From Steroidobacteraceae bacterium (GTDB taxonomy: Bacteria > Pseudomonadota > Gammaproteobacteria > Steroidobacterales > Steroidobacteraceae): 24,000 nt of DNA. Every line of letters begins with the position of its first letter. Position 1 is the stretch's first letter. Shown here piece after piece: positions 17,854 to 23,647 of this stretch. The position numbers and the translations under genes are program-made. The notes under the pieces were generated by a model that ran no database searches, had not been told where the DNA came from, and saw only the letters and a program-made list of their open reading frames with translations. Where the stretch lies: the NCBI GenBank assembly GCA_035504115.1, contig DATJSL010000030.1:19864-43863 (forward strand), read 5' to 3'.

Positions 17854-20433
17854 CTAGAAGAGCGGTTTGTCGCCATCATTCAGCGGGTTCGTATTGTTCT
17901 GCCCCTCCGCGCTCTCGGGCTTGGGCAGATTGCCTTCGATGAATTTCTCCATGATGCCGTTCGGATTGTCGGCGCTCGCGAGCAACCCGGTATCCGGCGA
18001 GATGCGCACCGTGACGATGCCGTCGGGCATCGGTACCTTGTGCCGCGGCACGCCATCGAGCGCCTGGTGCATGAAGAATATCCAGGTCGGCAGCGCGGCG
18101 CGCGAGCCCTGCTCGAGCTCGCCCAGGGTGCGATCCTGGTCGAAGCCGGTCCACACCGTCGCGACCAAGTCGGCGTTGAAGCCCGAGAACCAGGCATCGT
18201 GCGCATCGTTGGTCGTCCCCGTCTTTCCCGCAATGTCATCCCGGCCGAGCACCAGGGCCCTTTGGCCGGTGCCGTGCTTGATCACGTCCGCCATCATGTC
18301 GGACAGCAAATAGGCGACCTGGGGACGGATGATTTGCGGCGCGAGATCCTTGGCCGGGATCAGTGATTTGCCGTCGGGCACCCCCTCGTCGAGCCAGCTC
18401 GCGCTCGCGGCCGCGGCATGCTGCGACGCGGCGCGCTGGACCCCGGGCGCATGCGCGGCCGGGGGCGGCGGATCGTCGCTCGAGCTGCGCTCGAGGGCGG
18501 CGGTGAGCCCGGCGCCGCCCGCGGGCGGCCGCCCGTCCGCGAGCGCCGCGTTCAGAGTGCTCGTCTGGTCGGCGGCGCACTGTGCGCAGGCGATGAGCGG
18601 CTCCGCCTGGTAGATCGGCTTGCCGGTCGCGTCCAGAATCCGATCGATGTAGTAGGGGGTGACGCGAAATCCCCCGTTCGCGAACGTCGCATAGCCGGTG
18701 GCCACTTGCAGCGGGGAGAGCTCCGCGGTCCCCAGGGCCATGGTGAGATCATCGGGCACCTGGGACTTGTCGAAACCGAAGCGAGTGACGTAATTGCGCG
18801 CGTATTCGACGCCGATGTCGCGCACCACGCGCACCGACACGAGGTTGCGCGAGTAGGCCAGCGCGTCGCGCAGGCGCACCGGCCCGTAGAATTCGTTGGT
18901 GTCCTCTTTCGGCCGCCAGCCCGTGTCGTTGCCGGCGGTATCGATCACGATGGGCGCATCGAGCACCACGGTCGCGGGCGTGTAGCCCTTGTCGAATGCG
19001 GCCGCGTAGATGAAGGGCTTGAACCCCGAGCCAGGCTGCCGCCGCGCCTGGGTGACGCGGTTGAACTTGCTCTGGAAGTAATCGAAGCCGCCCACCAGCG
19101 CGACCACCGCCCCATCCTTCGGGTCGAGCGCGACGAGCGCGCTCTGCGCCTCCGGCACTTGCACGAACTGCAGGGATTCCGGGGTATTGCCGACCGTGTA
19201 GATCACATCGCCCCGATGCAAGATCTCGGAGGCGTCCGTCGGCGAGCGGTCCACCTTCTCATCCGGCAGCTCGCGCCGCGCCCAGGACAGCTTCGCCCAG
19301 GGAAGCGTCACGTCGCCCAGATCCTTCACATGGATCTTCGCGCTTTTCTCCTCCACGCCGACGACGATGGCCGGCCGCAAGCCCCCGACCGCGGGCCGCT
19401 CCTCGAGCTCGGCATCCATCGCCGCATCGCTCGTCAGCTTCGAGGGGTCGACCTTGTCGGCCGCGCCCCGCCAGCCGTGGCGGCGGTCGTACTCCAGGAG
19501 TCCCGTGCGCAGCGACACCGTGGCCGCGGCCTGCAGGCGCGAGTCGATGGTGGTGAAAACCTGATAGCCCGCCGTATAGATGGCGTCCCCGTACTTCGCC
19601 TGCATCTCGTTGCGCACCATCTCGGCGACATAGGGCGCGTCGACCTCGATGGATGGGCCGTGCAGGCGGCTCTCCATCGGACTCGCCTTCGCCTGCTCGT
19701 ATTGCGCCTCGGTGATGTAGCCGAGATCGCGCATTCTCCCGAGCACGTGGGCGCGGCGCACGGTGGCGGCCTCGGGGTTGGCGACCGGGTTGACGGTGGA
19801 GGGCGCGGCGGGAATGCCGGCGAGCGTCGCCATCTCCGCGATGCTCAGCTGATCGAGGCTCTTGCCGAAGTAGACCTCGGCGGCGGCGGCCACGCCGTAG
19901 GCGCGCTGTCCCAGGAAGATCTTGTTGACGTAGAGCGAGAAGATCTCTTCCTTGGTGAATTCGCTCTCCATCAGCAGCGAGATGTAGACCTCGCTCATCT
20001 TGCGCTTCATGTCGCGCCGCGGGGTGAGGAACATGTCGCGCGCCACCTGCATGGTGATCGTGCTCGCCCCCTGGCTGATCCGGCCGGCCCGCGCATTGGC
20101 GAGCGCGGCGCGCAAGATGCCCTGCCAGTCGACCCCATGATGGCGGAAGAACCGGTCATCCTCCGTGGCGAGGAAGGCCTGCACCAGCTTCGGCGGCAGG
20201 TCCGAGTAGCGCACCGGGATGCGCCTTTGCTCCCCGATCGAGGCCATCAGGCGCCCGTCGCGGGTATAAATCCTCAGGGGAACCTGCAATTGCACGTCGC
20301 GCAGGGACTCGACGTCCGGCAAGGCGGGGCGCAAGTAGACATAAGCGCAGACGTTGGCGAACGCGATCAGCACGATTGCGCCCGCCAGGCATGCACAAAT
20401 TCGGGATATGAGAACCAGGTAACGTTTGGCCAC
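17854..20433 (-). CDS. mrcA: Penicillin-binding protein 1A (bifunctional glycosyltransferase/transpeptidase)
   Basis: 859-aa ORF with an N-terminal membrane anchor. GT51 motifs are present (ATEDDRFFRHHGVD, GASTITMQVARD, RKMSEVYISLLME). The transpeptidase motifs are SGFKP (SxxK) and KTGTTND. It uses a GTG start. Divergent arrangement with pilMNOPQ is classic ponA synteny. Confidence 0.95.
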   Translation of the reverse strand: MAKRYLVLISRICACLAGAIVLIAFANVCAYVYLRPALPDVESLRDVQLQVPLRIYTRDGRLMASIGEQRRIPVRYSDLPPKLVQAFLATEDDRFFRHHGVDWQGILRAALANARAGRISQGASTITMQVARDMFLTPRRDMKRKMSEVYISLLMESEFTKEEIFSLYVNKIFLGQRAYGVAAAAEVYFGKSLDQLSIAEMATLAGIPAAPSTVNPVANPEAATVRRAHVLGRMRDLGYITEAQYEQAKASPMESRLHGPSIEVDAPYVAEMVRNEMQAKYGDAIYTAGYQVFTTIDSRLQAAATVSLRTGLLEYDRRHGWRGAADKVDPSKLTSDAAMDAELEERPAVGGLRPAIVVGVEEKSAKIHVKDLGDVTLPWAKLSWARRELPDEKVDRSPTDASEILHRGDVIYTVGNTPESLQFVQVPEAQSALVALDPKDGAVVALVGGFDYFQSKFNRVTQARRQPGSGFKPFIYAAAFDKGYTPATVVLDAPIVIDTAGNDTGWRPKEDTNEFYGPVRLRDALAYSRNLVSVRVVRDIGVEYARNYVTRFGFDKSQVPDDLTMALGTAELSPLQVATGYATFANGGFRVTPYYIDRILDATGKPIYQAEPLIACAQCAADQTSTLNAALADGRPPAGGAGLTAALERSSSDDPPPPAAHAPGVQRAASQHAAAASASWLDEGVPDGKSLIPAKDLAPQIIRPQVAYLLSDMMADVIKHGTGQRALVLGRDDIAGKTGTTNDAHDAWFSGFNADLVATVWTGFDQDRTLGELEQGSRAALPTWIFFMHQALDGVPRHKVPMPDGIVTVRISPDTGLLASADNPNGIMEKFIEGNLPKPESAEGQNNTNPLNDGDKPLF

Positions 20434-20488
20434 AGCAAACCGCTCTAACTTATTGCGCCGGCGGACACAGGGCTGGCATATTACCGCG

Positions 20489-20579
20489 GCTTACAAAGGC
20501 ATACTCATCGAAAGATGAGGACGCAAAGCCACCGGTCTAAGGGTTCGAGGCCTAAGACAGCGGGGTTGCCAGACCAAGC
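20489..20579 (+). promoter_or_regulatory. c-di-GMP-I (GEMM) riboswitch aptamer, oriented toward pilM
   Basis: Read directly. The first hairpin is CTCATC-GAAA-GATGAG (20504-20519, GNRA tetraloop). It is immediately followed by GACGCAAAGCC (20520-20530). The second hairpin is GTCTAAGG/CCTAAGAC (20535-20542 / 20551-20558) with an A-A mismatch, giving a UAAGG/CCUAAG tetraloop-receptor-like motif. AGCGGGGTTGCC follows at 20559-20570. The closing helix is GGC/GCC (20498-20500 / 20568-20570) plus GCTT/AAGC (20489-20492 / 20576-20579). These blocks match, in order and spacing, the V. cholerae Vc2 aptamer as I recall it (..CAUUCGAAAGAGUGGGACGCAAAGCCUCCGGCCUAA...GUAGCGGGGUUACC..). Confidence 0.85.
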
Positions 20580-20653
20580 TTAACCAATCGCCTAGGGAGA
20601 GCAATAGGCGAGAAGAGGTCTGAATGGACGTTCTGATGGATTCATCGATTGCG

Positions 20654-20681
20654 CTGCGGGATCCGCGCAGTTCTCATTTTT
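20654..20681 (+). terminator. Terminator-like hairpin 1 in the pilM leader (CTGCG-ggatccg-CGCAG followed by TTCTCATTTTT)
   Basis: A 5-bp GC stem at 20654-20658 / 20666-20670 is followed by a U-rich tract (8 of 11 T). The short stem keeps confidence low. Confidence 0.3.
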
Positions 20682-20696
20682 GCGACATGCCGGCGC

Positions 20697-20737
20697 CTCA
20701 CGGTCATTACCGTGAGTCTCTTCACGTTCTCATTTAA
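20697..20737 (+). terminator. Terminator-like hairpin 2 in the pilM leader (CTCACGGT-catt-ACCGTGAG followed by TCTCTTCACGTTCTCATTT)
   Basis: A perfect 8-bp stem with a 4-nt loop (20697-20716) is followed by a pyrimidine/U-rich stretch. It lies 80-120 nt upstream of the pilM start. Confidence 0.4.
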
Positions 20738-20815
20738 CAGTTTTCGCTAACTTTGAGCATCTATGTCAGCGTCCCCCACCGCGCTCCAACGTGTTGAGCG
20801 AAAAGGAATATTCTA

Positions 20816-21880
20816 GTGTTCGCGCTAGGTAAACGTTACCGTCCGCTGCTGGGGCTGGACATCACCACCTCGTCGGTGAAGCTGATCGAGCTGACCATGT
20901 CGGGTGGGCAATACCGGGTCGAGTCCTATGCCGCGGAGCCGACCCCGCACAATGCCATCAACGAGAAGGTCATCGTCGACGCCGAAGCGGTCGGCGAGGC
21001 GATCCGCCGCGCCGTGAAGCGCTCCGGCGCGAAGAGCCGCCTCGCGGCCATCGCCATCTCCGGCGATGCCGCCATCACCAAGGTCATCCAGATGCCCAAG
21101 ACCCTCGGTGAGCACGAGCTCGAGGGCCAGGTCGAGATGCAGGCCGACCAGTACATCCCCTTCCCCATGGAGGAGGTGAGCTACGACTTCCAGGTCGTCG
21201 GCCCGTCCGAGAAGGACCCGGACATGCTCGACGTGCTGCTGGTGGCGACGCGCACCGAGAACGTCGAGCAGCGCCAGGCGGCGGTTCAGGCCTCGGGCTT
21301 GACGGCGCAGATCGTCGACGTCGAGGCGTTCGCCCTCGAGAACGCCTGCGCTCTGATGCGCCATCAGATGCCGGACGGCGGCATGGACCGCACCGTCGCG
21401 GTGGTCGATTTCGGCGCGAGCAGCACGACCTTCAGCGTGCTGCGCGACCTCAAGGTCGTCTACACCCGCGACTTCGCCTTCGGCGGCCAGCAGCTCACCG
21501 AGGAGATCATGCGCACCTACGGGCTGTCCATGGAGGAAGCGGGGCGCGCCAAGAAGGAAGGCGGATTGCCGAGCAACTATCAGCCCGAGGTCCTCGACCC
21601 GTTCATCGACGACATGACGCAGCAGGTGAGCCGCTCGCTGCAGTTCTACCTCGCCTCGGGCAGCGGCCGCTCGCAGCCGGACCAGATCCTCGTGTGCGGC
21701 GGCTGCGCCAACATACCCGGCGTCGCCGAGGTGATCTCCAGCCGCGTCGGCGTGGCCGCCGACAAGGGCGATCCGCTCGGCAACATGAAGGTGTCGTCGA
21801 AAGCCAAAGCGCAGGCGGTGAGCCGCGACGCAACGGCCTTGCTTACCGCCTGCGGCCTCGCGCTGCGCAGCTTCGACTGA
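20816..21880 (+). CDS. pilM: Type IV pilus assembly protein PilM (actin-like ATPase fold)
   Basis: GTG start with AAAAGGAA 8 nt upstream. VFALGKRYRPLLGLDITTSSVKLIEL...YAAEPTP...ADQYIPFPMEEVSYDFQV is collinear with P. aeruginosa PilM (LLGIDISSTSVKLLEL...ADQYIPYPLEEV). Confidence 0.93.
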   Translation: MFALGKRYRPLLGLDITTSSVKLIELTMSGGQYRVESYAAEPTPHNAINEKVIVDAEAVGEAIRRAVKRSGAKSRLAAIAISGDAAITKVIQMPKTLGEHELEGQVEMQADQYIPFPMEEVSYDFQVVGPSEKDPDMLDVLLVATRTENVEQRQAAVQASGLTAQIVDVEAFALENACALMRHQMPDGGMDRTVAVVDFGASSTTFSVLRDLKVVYTRDFAFGGQQLTEEIMRTYGLSMEEAGRAKKEGGLPSNYQPEVLDPFIDDMTQQVSRSLQFYLASGSGRSQPDQILVCGGCANIPGVAEVISSRVGVAADKGDPLGNMKVSSKAKAQAVSRDATALLTACGLALRSFD

Positions 21881-21888
21881 GGGGTGCC

Positions 21889-22476
21889 ATGCCGCGTATC
21901 AATCTACTTCCCCACCGCGAACAAGAGCGCAAGCGACGCCGCCGCGAATTCGGCGTCGCCGTGATCGGGGCGCTGCTCGCCGGTGCCGTCGTCGCCGGCG
22001 GAGCCAAGGTGGTCTATTCGACCTGGATCGACGCTCAGACCGAGAAGAACAACCTCCTGAAGAAGGAGATCGTGAAGCTCGATGCCGAGATCGCCGACAT
22101 CCAGGACCTCGAGACGCGCAAGCAGCGCCTGGTGGCGCGCATGGAGATCATCGACAAGCTGCAGCGCAAGCGTCCGGAAATCGTGCATCAGTTCGACGAG
22201 CTGGTGCGCACCGTGCCCGACGGCGTCTATCTGACCTCGATCAAGCAGAGCGGCAACAAGCTCGAGCTCAAGGGCGTGGCGCAATCGAGCACGCGCGTAT
22301 CGACCTTCATGCGCAACATCGACGCCTCGGCCTGGATGGATAACCCCGAGCTGCAGGTGGTGGAGACGGCCAAGGACTCGCCCACCGGCGGATCGAACTT
22401 CACCGTGTTCGCCAACACCGTGGGGGTCAATCTCGACGAAGGCGGCGAAACCACGGTCAAGAAGGCAGCAAAATGA
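21889..22476 (+). CDS. pilN: Type IV pilus assembly protein PilN
   Basis: ATG 21889 gives MPRINLLPHREQERKRRRREF followed by a TM helix, the canonical PilN N-terminus. The 65 codons the track ORF adds upstream lie inside pilM and are rejected. Confidence 0.9.
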   Translation: MPRINLLPHREQERKRRRREFGVAVIGALLAGAVVAGGAKVVYSTWIDAQTEKNNLLKKEIVKLDAEIADIQDLETRKQRLVARMEIIDKLQRKRPEIVHQFDELVRTVPDGVYLTSIKQSGNKLELKGVAQSSTRVSTFMRNIDASAWMDNPELQVVETAKDSPTGGSNFTVFANTVGVNLDEGGETTVKKAAK

Positions 22477-23120
22477 AGTTGCTCGAAGAGCTCAAATCGA
22501 TCGACCCGCGCGACCCCGGCCGCTGGCCGCTGGTGGTGCGCGGCTTCTTCGTCCTCGTGGTATTCGTCCTGTGCGCCGGATTCTTCACGTACATGTTCGT
22601 GTGGAACGAGGATCGGCCGGTGCTGCAGAAGGCCGAGGCGGACGAGCTCGATCTGCGCACGCAGTTCGAGAACAAGCAGCAGCGGGCCGTCAATCTCGAC
22701 GCCTACAAGGCGCAGCTCGCGGACATGGAGCGCTCCTTCGGCGCGATGCTGCGCCAGCTGCCCGGCAAGACCGAAGTGCCGAATCTGCTGGTCGACATCT
22801 CCCAGACCGGCCTCGCCGCGGGCCTGAGCGAGAAGCTGTTCCAGCCCGGTGCCGAGAAGAGCAACGGCTTCTACGCGGAGCTGCCCATCAAGATCAGGCT
22901 GGTCGGCTCCTACCATCAGTTCGGCGCCTTCGTCAGCGGCATCGCCGCTCTGCCGCGCATCGTCACGCTGCACGACATCCAGATCACTCCCGTCGACAGC
23001 AAGGTCGGCGGCTACGACAACCTGACCATGGATGTGACCGCCAAGACCTATCGGTACATCGAGGACGAGGGCGGCGCCAAGCCCGCTCCGAAGAAGAAGA
23101 CAAAAGGAGGCGCTTCGTGA
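22473..23120 (+). CDS. pilO: Type IV pilus assembly protein PilO
   Basis: ATGA overlap with the pilN stop. It has an N-terminal TM helix and a coiled-coil region, and its C-terminal half contains PILO-like motifs (LPGKTEVPNLLVDISQ, YHQFGAFVSGIAALPRIVTLHD). Confidence 0.9.
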   Translation: MKLLEELKSIDPRDPGRWPLVVRGFFVLVVFVLCAGFFTYMFVWNEDRPVLQKAEADELDLRTQFENKQQRAVNLDAYKAQLADMERSFGAMLRQLPGKTEVPNLLVDISQTGLAAGLSEKLFQPGAEKSNGFYAELPIKIRLVGSYHQFGAFVSGIAALPRIVTLHDIQITPVDSKVGGYDNLTMDVTAKTYRYIEDEGGAKPAPKKKTKGGAS

Positions 23121-23647
23121 ACTTGAGACCCAAGTCCCGCCGCGCCGCGGGCGTGCGCAGCGTCTGCGCGGTCGCGCTCGCAGGCTGCGTGATGGCGGGT
23201 TGCTCGGGCGGCCAGTCGGACCTGCAGCAGTGGATCGCGATGACCAAGAAGAAGCCCGGCGGCCGGATCCAGCCGCTGCCCGAGGTCAAGCCCTACGAGA
23301 GCTTCGTGTACAGCGCGAGCAATCTGCGCTCTCCGTTCCAGCCGGCCAGCCCGAACCTCGCCAACGGCGGCGTGCGGCCGACCGTGCGGCGCAACCGGGA
23401 GTTCCTGGAAAACTTCTCGCTCGACACGCTGAAGATGGTGGGCACGTTCAAGGTGGGAAACAGCTTCTATGGACTGGTGCAATCCAAGGACGGCCTGGTG
23501 CACAAGGTTCAGCCCGGCAACTACATGGGCCAGAACGACGGCAAGGTGACTGAGATTACGGCCAGCAAAATAAGCCTCATCGAGATCATACCGGACGGTC
23601 TCGGCGGCTACATCGAGCGACCGGCCTCATTGGCATTGACTGATTGA
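23117..23647 (+). CDS. pilP: Type IV pilus assembly lipoprotein PilP
   Basis: GTG 23117 forms a GTGA overlap with pilO, with AAAAGGAGG 6 nt upstream. It has the lipobox LAGC/MAGCS. The C-terminal beta domain (LKMVGTF..YGLVQSKDGLVHKVQPGNYMGQNDGKVTEIT) is typical of PilP. Confidence 0.85.
   Translation: MNLRPKSRRAAGVRSVCAVALAGCVMAGCSGGQSDLQQWIAMTKKKPGGRIQPLPEVKPYESFVYSASNLRSPFQPASPNLANGGVRPTVRRNREFLENFSLDTLKMVGTFKVGNSFYGLVQSKDGLVHKVQPGNYMGQNDGKVTEITASKISLIEIIPDGLGGYIERPASLALTD

Follow-up and report, generated by a model that had tools for sequence, protein, structure and literature searches.

What does a riboswitch for a cyclic dinucleotide do upstream of the alignment and secretin genes of the type IV pilus, and does it control them directly? 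The question is raised by a stretch of 24,000 nucleotides (nt) of DNA, here called the window, from an uncultured gammaproteobacterium, a Steroidobacteraceae bacterium (contig DATJSL010000030.1). An earlier note on this DNA had proposed that an aptamer of the class I type for cyclic di-GMP (c-di-GMP), lying between the divergent genes mrcA and pilM, feeds directly into the operon pilMNOPQ. We consider the aptamer almost certainly genuine, and favour with moderate confidence a reading in which it forms the 5′ end of a pilMNOPQ leader of ~330 nt and modulates read-through into the operon, beside a second, proximal promoter.

The full window was scanned with cmscan against Rfam 15. The sole match was to RF01051 (c-di-GMP-I, the GEMM-I family), at 20488–20573 on the plus strand, which is also the strand of pilM, 243 nt 5′ of the pilM start. 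It covers model positions 1–87 of 87 with a score of 81.3 bits (E = 7.3e-15) against a gathering score of 35 bits, and so passes the Rfam test that the earlier note had named; the coordinates given there, 20489–20579, lie within a few bases of the match. The sequence blocks on which that note relied are all present in the place and on the strand described. In order, they are a first hairpin CUCAUC-GAAA-GAUGAG at 20504–20519 with a GAAA loop of the GNRA type, GACGCAAAGCC, a second hairpin bearing the tetraloop receptor, and AGCGGGGUUGCC. The GAAA-capped hairpin and GGUCUAAGG…CCUAAGAC fit the consensus structure of RF01051, in which two hairpins meet at a junction, the first capped by a GNRA tetraloop and the second carrying a receptor-type internal loop. 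Thus score, two-hairpin fold, contact nucleotides and placement in a 5′ leader all agree at the sequence level with membership of the family, and a chance match is ruled out by the E-value and by conservation. The closing helix had also been predicted; it is present but weak, the candidate P1 consisting of GCUU (20489–92) paired with AAGC (20576–79). Orthologues with GCUU on the 5′ side keep AAGC on the 3′ side in 15 of 16 cases and those with GGUU in 9 of 21, the latter having an alternative pairing of GGUUA with UAACC, an association uncorrected for phylogeny.

A PilM-based scan taking one genome per GTDB species gave 80 orthologous loci (L001–L080) with PilM identities of 87–98%. Nearly all come from genomes assembled out of soil, peat and bog metagenomes and carrying the label Steroidobacteraceae or Gammaproteobacteria; the survey covers PilM relatives of at least 87% identity, and taxa beyond lie outside its reach. 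In Rfam scans the aptamer stood at or above the gathering score, at the same position and on the same strand, in 62 of the 80 loci. Helices and contact nucleotides were compared across 36 distinct intact copies, in which every helix is kept: the changes are mostly single-sided and give G·U, and almost no pair is broken. The alignment of orthologues that had been suggested as a check therefore upheld the conservation of the helices, but covariation proved weak, three pairs having changed on both sides. It is low in amount because the family is young, and the identity of the aptamer is settled by the independent Rfam model. The tetraloop receptor has been lost in a subset of orthologues. About 45 orthologues keep the aptamer near-invariant whilst the rest of the spacer is ~75–85% identical; this pattern indicates purifying selection in the window's lineage on the aptamer and, further along the leader, on the helix H1 and the GAGG-AUG pair described below.

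Downstream of the aptamer the leader has three predicted helices, which were scored by explicit pair counts in the 32 closest leaders, with slid alignments as controls. H1 (CAGACC 20570–75 with GGUCUG 20617–22) starts one base 3′ of the equivalent of C92 in the Vc2 aptamer of Vibrio cholerae; it is near-invariant, with 100% of cells paired and no double-sided change. H2 (UCGCCUA 20588–94 with UAGGCGA 20605–11) lies inside H1, is 87% paired and has double-sided changes at three pairs. The third, H3, is a terminator-like hairpin at 20653–20671 with a U-tract running to 20681 (−9.4 kcal/mol), 78% paired and with four pairs changed on both sides. Together the three helices have 84% of cells paired, against 25–44% in the slid controls, and the folding energy of the H1/H2 module is −18.6 kcal/mol. 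In distant orthologues the letters of H1 are swapped for CCGGAACG:CGUUCCGG and the helix is retained. Another subgroup has a longer pairing, in which the downstream strand CGGCARCC[CC] reaches the aptamer's GGGGUUGCCG; in the folding models this pairing is a classical anti-aptamer, favoured in free folds by 14–25 kcal/mol. Since the 3′ strand of P1 lies inside the loop of H1, the two helices cross, and would be either mutually exclusive or part of a pseudoknot. In the window H3 is followed directly by UUCUCAUUUUU; it was flagged by the terminator scan and forms in the folding models whether the aptamer is enforced or left free, and its stem register differs among orthologues.

Two further pairings appeared in the folding of the window and did not survive comparison. 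The U-tract CUCAUUUUU pairs with GAAAGAUGAG of the aptamer in the minimum-free-energy fold, but this pairing is lost wherever either side varies, and we rejected it; pairing of the 5′ CCGCGGC with the 5′ arm of the hairpin was likewise unconserved in orthologues. One relative, L045, has ~four tandem copies of a hairpin-containing unit, CTCAATCRCYACGGATTGYCGYAG, between the aptamer and the palindrome described below (~300–500 in that locus). Its leader is ~65 nt longer, and its leader open reading frame (ORF) stays open through all the copies, at 62 codons.

The leader ORF of the window runs from 20624 to 20737 on the plus strand (37 codons), its AUG at 20624 standing five nt past a GAGG (20615–18) that resembles a Shine-Dalgarno (SD) sequence and lies half within the 3′ strand of H1. 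The frame reads through H3 and the U-tract and stops at a conserved ATTTAA. An ATG 5–10 nt past GAGG, with the frame open through the hairpin, was found in 46 of 46 distinct leaders of the close group, its position shifting between GAATGG and GGATGA. Compared over a common interval, 56 of 63 ATG-bearing frames contain no stop through the hairpin, as against 43 of 75 other frames (odds ratio ~6, p ~5e-5, uncorrected for phylogeny or shared ancestry). A larger estimate of this openness, with an odds ratio of 25, was discarded, as it was biased by a conserved TGA in GGTCTGAA and shrank to ~6 on the common interval. We also rejected the view that the ORF encodes a conserved small protein: orthologues use three frames and three different stops, and the apparent similarity of the leader peptides arises because the nucleotides themselves are conserved. 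Platforms differ within the Steroidobacteraceae, and the leader-ORF feature is absent from distant subgroups.

The best-conserved block of the spacer, above even the aptamer, lies further downstream at 20703–20755 and reads GATTAyCGTGAGTAnnnTCACGTTCnATTTAACAGTTTCTTGCTAAGTTTG. We predict that it contains a proximal pilM promoter on the plus strand (20711–20753), made up of a palindrome of the CRP/Clp/Vfr type, CGTGA-N6-TCACG (20711–26), and a −10 element TAACTT (20748–53); the stop of the leader ORF falls between the two. The core GTGA-N6-TCAC is found in 77 of the 80 loci (the exceptions being L033, L036 and L078), 104–113 nt 5′ of the pilM start; its half-sites are the same throughout and its spacer differs, and this holds for loci from which the aptamer has been deleted. 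It is the single match in the 24-kb window, where 0.16 would be expected, and 16 of 100 shuffled sequences have one. The consensus for CRP and Vfr is TGTGA-N6-TCACA; the window's palindrome matches it at 8 of 10 half-site positions, and some orthologues have TGTGA. The element TAACTT/TAAGTT is often preceded by TG, and taken as the −10 it gives a predicted start at ~20760 with the site centred near −41.5, a geometry that fits a class II activator-dependent promoter. The terminator scan had flagged 20711–26 as a second terminator, which we rejected on account of the invariant CGTGA/TCACG half-sites, the variable spacer, the fixed distance to pilM in 77 of 80 loci and the conserved −10 after it. 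A proximal promoter for pilM, past the riboswitch and independent of it, is therefore probable on these comparative grounds, and a CRP-family regulator probably acts there. In Lysobacter enzymogenes the c-di-GMP-binding CRP-family protein Clp directly binds and activates the pilMNOPQ promoter (PMC8246147).

Because this proximal promoter is 3′ of the aptamer, only transcripts from a start farther upstream would carry the aptamer. A putative upstream promoter is present at 20453–20482 on the plus strand, with TTGCGC at 20453–58, an 18-nt spacer and CATATT at 20477–82; its predicted start, ~20488–20490, falls where the aptamer match begins. Almost every orthologue retains TTGC and (G)CATATTAC, separated by 14–18 nt of variable sequence, and from these features we infer a promoter for the riboswitch transcript. 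The proposal that the aptamer feeds directly into pilMNOPQ thus holds in part. The aptamer is upstream of the operon and on its strand, but a separate promoter of the CRP/Clp/Vfr type intervenes, and the roughly one-fifth of relatives without an aptamer mostly keep that promoter.

In the reading that we favour, transcription would start at ~20489 from the weak upstream promoter. The 3′ tail of the aptamer could then pair in either of two ways: as P1 (GCUU:AAGC), closing the ligand-bound fold, or as H1 (CAGACC:GGUCUG), hiding half of the SD-like GAGG 5 nt before the AUG. Occupancy by the ligand would shift the balance between P1 and H1 and in this way set the access of ribosomes to a leader ORF that has no conserved peptide. 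Translation across H3 and the U-tract (20653–20681) would decide between termination, whether intrinsic or Rho-dependent, and read-through into pilM. The layout suggests an attenuation-like arrangement via the leader ORF. We rate action of the riboswitch in cis on pilMNOPQ read-through as somewhat better than an even bet, whereas coupling through the leader ORF is put forward tentatively, at rather less than that. For the direction, our guess is that c-di-GMP favours P1, so that H1 opens, the ORF is translated and transcription reads through (ON); granted the coupling, we lean slightly this way because the Geobacter pilM and Clostridioides difficile pilA1 switches behave so. The riboswitch would be one of two inputs, with the proximal promoter supplying riboswitch-independent expression. 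It is conceivable, if doubtful, that pilMNOPQ integrates c-di-GMP twice, through an RNA-gated, attenuation-like upstream transcript and through a Clp-type c-di-GMP-responsive regulator at the proximal promoter; if true, this double integration could give a multi-threshold response comparable to that of Vc2/tfoY.

Several observations weigh against this reading. The upstream promoter is weak, matching the consensus at 7 of 12 positions and falling below the threshold of the promoter scan. On the minus strand its ATATTA block is TAATAT, a possible −10 of mrcA; the divergent promoters would then overlap back to back. In thermodynamic folds of the window's leader the aptamer, H1/H2 and H3 coexist, and classical competition between terminator and antiterminator was not found in the folds of the window's subgroup. 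The U-tract after H3 is poor (…CACUUUGCC) in most orthologues. The distant subgroups L074/77/78 and L060–71 lack the leader ORF, and shared ancestry may contribute to its apparent openness elsewhere. Covariation of the aptamer is scant within the Steroidobacteraceae, the three pairs given above being the only ones with double-sided changes. Finally, one of the 18 loci without a match is truncated, and in 17 of the remaining 79 assessable loci the aptamer is eroded or deleted, so that it is dispensable in some lineages.

How far could the same elements be explained by a riboswitch that never reaches the operon? The aptamer might sit in a separate RNA of ~190 nt ending at 20653–20681, with c-di-GMP-dependent abundance or stability, pilMNOPQ being transcribed essentially only from the proximal promoter. 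H3 with its UUCUCAUUUUU does resemble a competent intrinsic terminator, one that forms with or without the aptamer enforced, and a complete predicted promoter lies downstream of it. There is precedent too, as small RNAs containing Vc2 are stabilised by c-di-GMP and the tfoY promoters past Vc2 are riboswitch-independent (bioRxiv 10.1101/617340). However, the weak U-tract (CACUUUGCC) of most orthologues implies leaky termination, a pure small RNA would hardly account for the conservation of an SD-AUG and of a frame open across the hairpin, and no target in trans is evident. We regard a separate short RNA as unlikely.

Less likely still is that the aptamer, although intact, is a functionally decaying relic whose platform transmits no ligand signal, so that the proximal promoter alone controls pilMNOPQ in practice. 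A c-di-GMP-I riboswitch that binds its ligand without changing downstream expression is known in Bc1 (PMC11218506), and no competing fold was found in the window's subgroup. Furthermore, the 17 eroded or deleted copies lie at the same place with the rest of the leader kept, and four more copies score just 35–53 bits. Point-mutated or partly deleted aptamers are seen in L015, L029–31, L041, L048 and L075/76, and clean deletions in L022/23, L055/57, L059/62, L072/73 and L079. The deletions differ in extent and leave the flanking leader elements in place: the upstream ATATTAC block is kept in all 17 of these loci, and the proximal promoter in 16 of them, the exception being L029. Since the most distant PilM relatives (L074, L077, L078 and L080) bear the aptamer, the aptamer-bearing state is ancestral, which points to several independent losses of the riboswitch. 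Against decay in the window itself stand a score of 81 bits, with no damage at any core position, and the near-invariance of the aptamer in ~45 orthologues amid a diverging spacer, which points to purifying selection.

A direct repeat, ATTACCG, occurs at 20480–20486 and 20705–20711, at both ends of the segment that comprises riboswitch and platform, and the bases beside the two copies (CCGCGG… and …CACGGT) are partly complementary. The repeat could belong to a helix formed at long range in the RNA, or have been the recombination substrate behind the deletions; it could also be promoter elements that happen to coincide. A long-range helix between 20480–90 and 20698–20708 was considered and left unproven. 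Pairing reaches 78%, and some changes are double-sided, but across 74 loci A·C mismatches (72) are about as common as G·U (91), both strands overlap elements whose conservation has other causes, and the 5′ strand would lie upstream of the predicted start.

The predicted ligand follows from the contact nucleotides. Of the two guanines of c-di-GMP, Vc2 recognises one through G20 and pairs the other with C92, and its A47 also touches the ligand (PMC5888326; PMC6140456). The model alignment places the counterparts of G20, A47 and C92 at G20498, A20525 and C20569, a triad that is invariant across the 36 intact copies. Riboswitches for 3′,3′-cyclic GMP-AMP (cGAMP) carry an A at the position of G20 (A14 in Gs1761; PMC6140456); this GEMM-Ib signature is absent, a G standing there in the window and in 36 of 36 intact orthologues. 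The G at the specificity position therefore predicts c-di-GMP rather than cGAMP as the ligand, and the class I assignment of the earlier note agrees with the c-di-GMP-type contacts. That the aptamer would instead sense cGAMP, as the Geobacter pilM riboswitch does, is most improbable: the gene context is shared with that GEMM-Ib riboswitch (PMC9262584; PMC6456294) and the Rfam model does not separate GEMM-I from GEMM-Ib, but the cGAMP RNAs have A where 20498 and its counterparts have G, and wild-type Vc2, whose residue there is G20, binds cGAMP far more weakly (KD 10 µM) than c-di-GMP (picomolar; PMC6140456).

A second variant family was also considered. RF03167 (c-di-GMP-I-GGC) is marked by a G at the A47 position, with consensus GACGCGAA, where the window has GACGCAAA. 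Although 13 orthologues score best to RF03167 (59–64 bits, gathering 59), we rejected GGC status for them, as they keep the A at the A47 position (GACGCAAA, not GACGCGAA); a divergent distal hairpin drives the assignment and the binding site is unaltered. The sole orthologue with a true GGC binding-site signature is L011 (~2670–2758, 45 bits), which reads GACGCGAAGCC with G at the A47 position. Its copy has a GAAT loop in place of GAAA.

How new is such an arrangement? Control of pilMNOPQ by an RNA sensor of cyclic dinucleotides had been thought uncharacterised, and this is not borne out. The riboswitch before pilM in Geobacter metallireducens, a transcriptional ON-switch of the GEMM-I family that responds to cGAMP, has been dissected in detail (PMC9262584; PMC10118264), and in G. 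sulfurreducens the pilMNOP operon is among the genes controlled by GEMM-Ib riboswitches (PMC6456294). The two systems share the GEMM-I fold family, a 5′ leader on the same strand with pilM or pilMNOP downstream, and the sensing of a cyclic dinucleotide, which here is predicted (PMC9262584; PMC6456294). They differ at the specificity position, where the Geobacter RNA has A and binds cGAMP whilst the G found here predicts c-di-GMP, and in their hosts, Desulfuromonadota as against Gammaproteobacteria (Steroidobacteraceae). Their platforms are also unlike. In Geobacter a compact terminator overlaps the P1 strand of the aptamer, ~100 nt in all; here pilM starts ~240 nt further on, there is no terminator overlapping the aptamer, and an H1/H2 module with its SD-AUG and a predicted promoter intervene. 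A literature search of incomplete coverage found no riboswitch linked to the pili of Steroidobacteraceae and no c-di-GMP-specific class I riboswitch before a gammaproteobacterial pilMNOPQ, other taxa being unsurveyed. What remains new is thus a version for c-di-GMP, not cGAMP, in a gammaproteobacterial family, together with an unusual platform.

Other systems resemble parts of this layout. Vc2/tfoY of V. cholerae shares the class I aptamer, the G20/A47/C92 contacts, the long intergenic leader and promoters on both sides of the aptamer, such that part of the transcripts are riboswitch-controlled, although here the promoters are predicted. At tfoY, promoters within and downstream of Vc2 give riboswitch-independent transcripts driven by a c-di-GMP-responsive factor (bioRxiv 10.1101/617340). 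It differs in that the target is tfoY and not pilMNOPQ, the downstream regulator is VpsR and not a CRP-family protein, and control acts on translation and RNA stability. Control of pilMNOPQ by CRP-family proteins (Clp in L. enzymogenes, Vfr in Pseudomonas) shares the palindrome upstream of the operon; those systems have no leader riboswitch, and here the CGTGA-N6-TCACG site is predicted from conservation and geometry alone. In C. difficile, the case cited in the earlier note, a c-di-GMP riboswitch likewise acts on type IV pilus genes, but its aptamer is of the unrelated class II, its target pilA1 is a pilin gene rather than the alignment and secretin operon, and the host is Gram-positive. Bc1 of Bacillus thuringiensis has a class I aptamer with an unusually long platform, hairpin and U-tract elements and a transcription-factor site in the platform DNA (PMC11218506). 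There, two canonical terminators are bound by Zur, whereas here a single terminator-like hairpin is combined with a leader ORF and a predicted promoter of the CRP type.

The locus would extend riboswitch control of the alignment and secretin operon of type IV pili from Geobacter, with cGAMP, to a widespread gammaproteobacterial family of soil and peat, with c-di-GMP as the predicted ligand. In Xanthomonas and Lysobacter, control of pili by c-di-GMP is regarded as protein-based; in relatives of these bacteria, an RNA sensor can sit atop a promoter of the CRP/Clp type. The long platform, with H1/H2, an SD-AUG and an ORF across the hairpin, offers a testable alternative to compact terminator switches, and the many eroded copies form a natural series on riboswitch loss. 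Of moderate interest as side findings are the layout with two promoters, the long platform with its leader ORF and the repeated loss of the aptamer. No new class of mechanism is opened, and no long-standing question is resolved.

The surroundings of the leader are as the earlier note described them, domain matches confirming the flanking genes. The spacer between mrcA and pilM is 382 bp long with a G+C fraction of ~0.55, against 0.66–0.68 in its flanks. On the minus strand, mrcA (17854–20433, GTG start at 20433) encodes PBP1A with transglycosylase, OB and transpeptidase domains. On the plus strand pilM (20816–21880; Pfam PilM_2, PF11104, 5e-126) begins with a GTG preceded by a AAAAGGAA Shine-Dalgarno sequence, and is followed by pilN (21877–22476; Pfam PilN, 4e-25), pilO (22473–23120; Pfam PilO, 2e-53), pilP (23117–23647; Pfam PilP, 5e-48) and the 5′ part of pilQ, from 23650 to the window end (23999), with an N-terminal AMIN domain (2e-6). 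Successive genes from pilM to pilP share 4-nt overlaps of stop and start (pilM/pilN 21877–21880, pilN/pilO 22473–22476, pilO/pilP 23117–23120), as is typical of translational coupling. No enzyme of c-di-GMP metabolism and no crp or clp gene was found among the window ORFs scanned. At the left end of the window, at 355–2508 on the minus strand, is a full-length bifunctional RelA/SpoT homologue with HD, RelA_SpoT, TGS and ACT domains, followed by yicC, a hemN-like radical SAM gene, citrate synthase, a PQQ/BamB-like beta-propeller, a DegP-like protease and two aminotransferases; the gene neighbourhood of the window is an ordinary chromosomal context.

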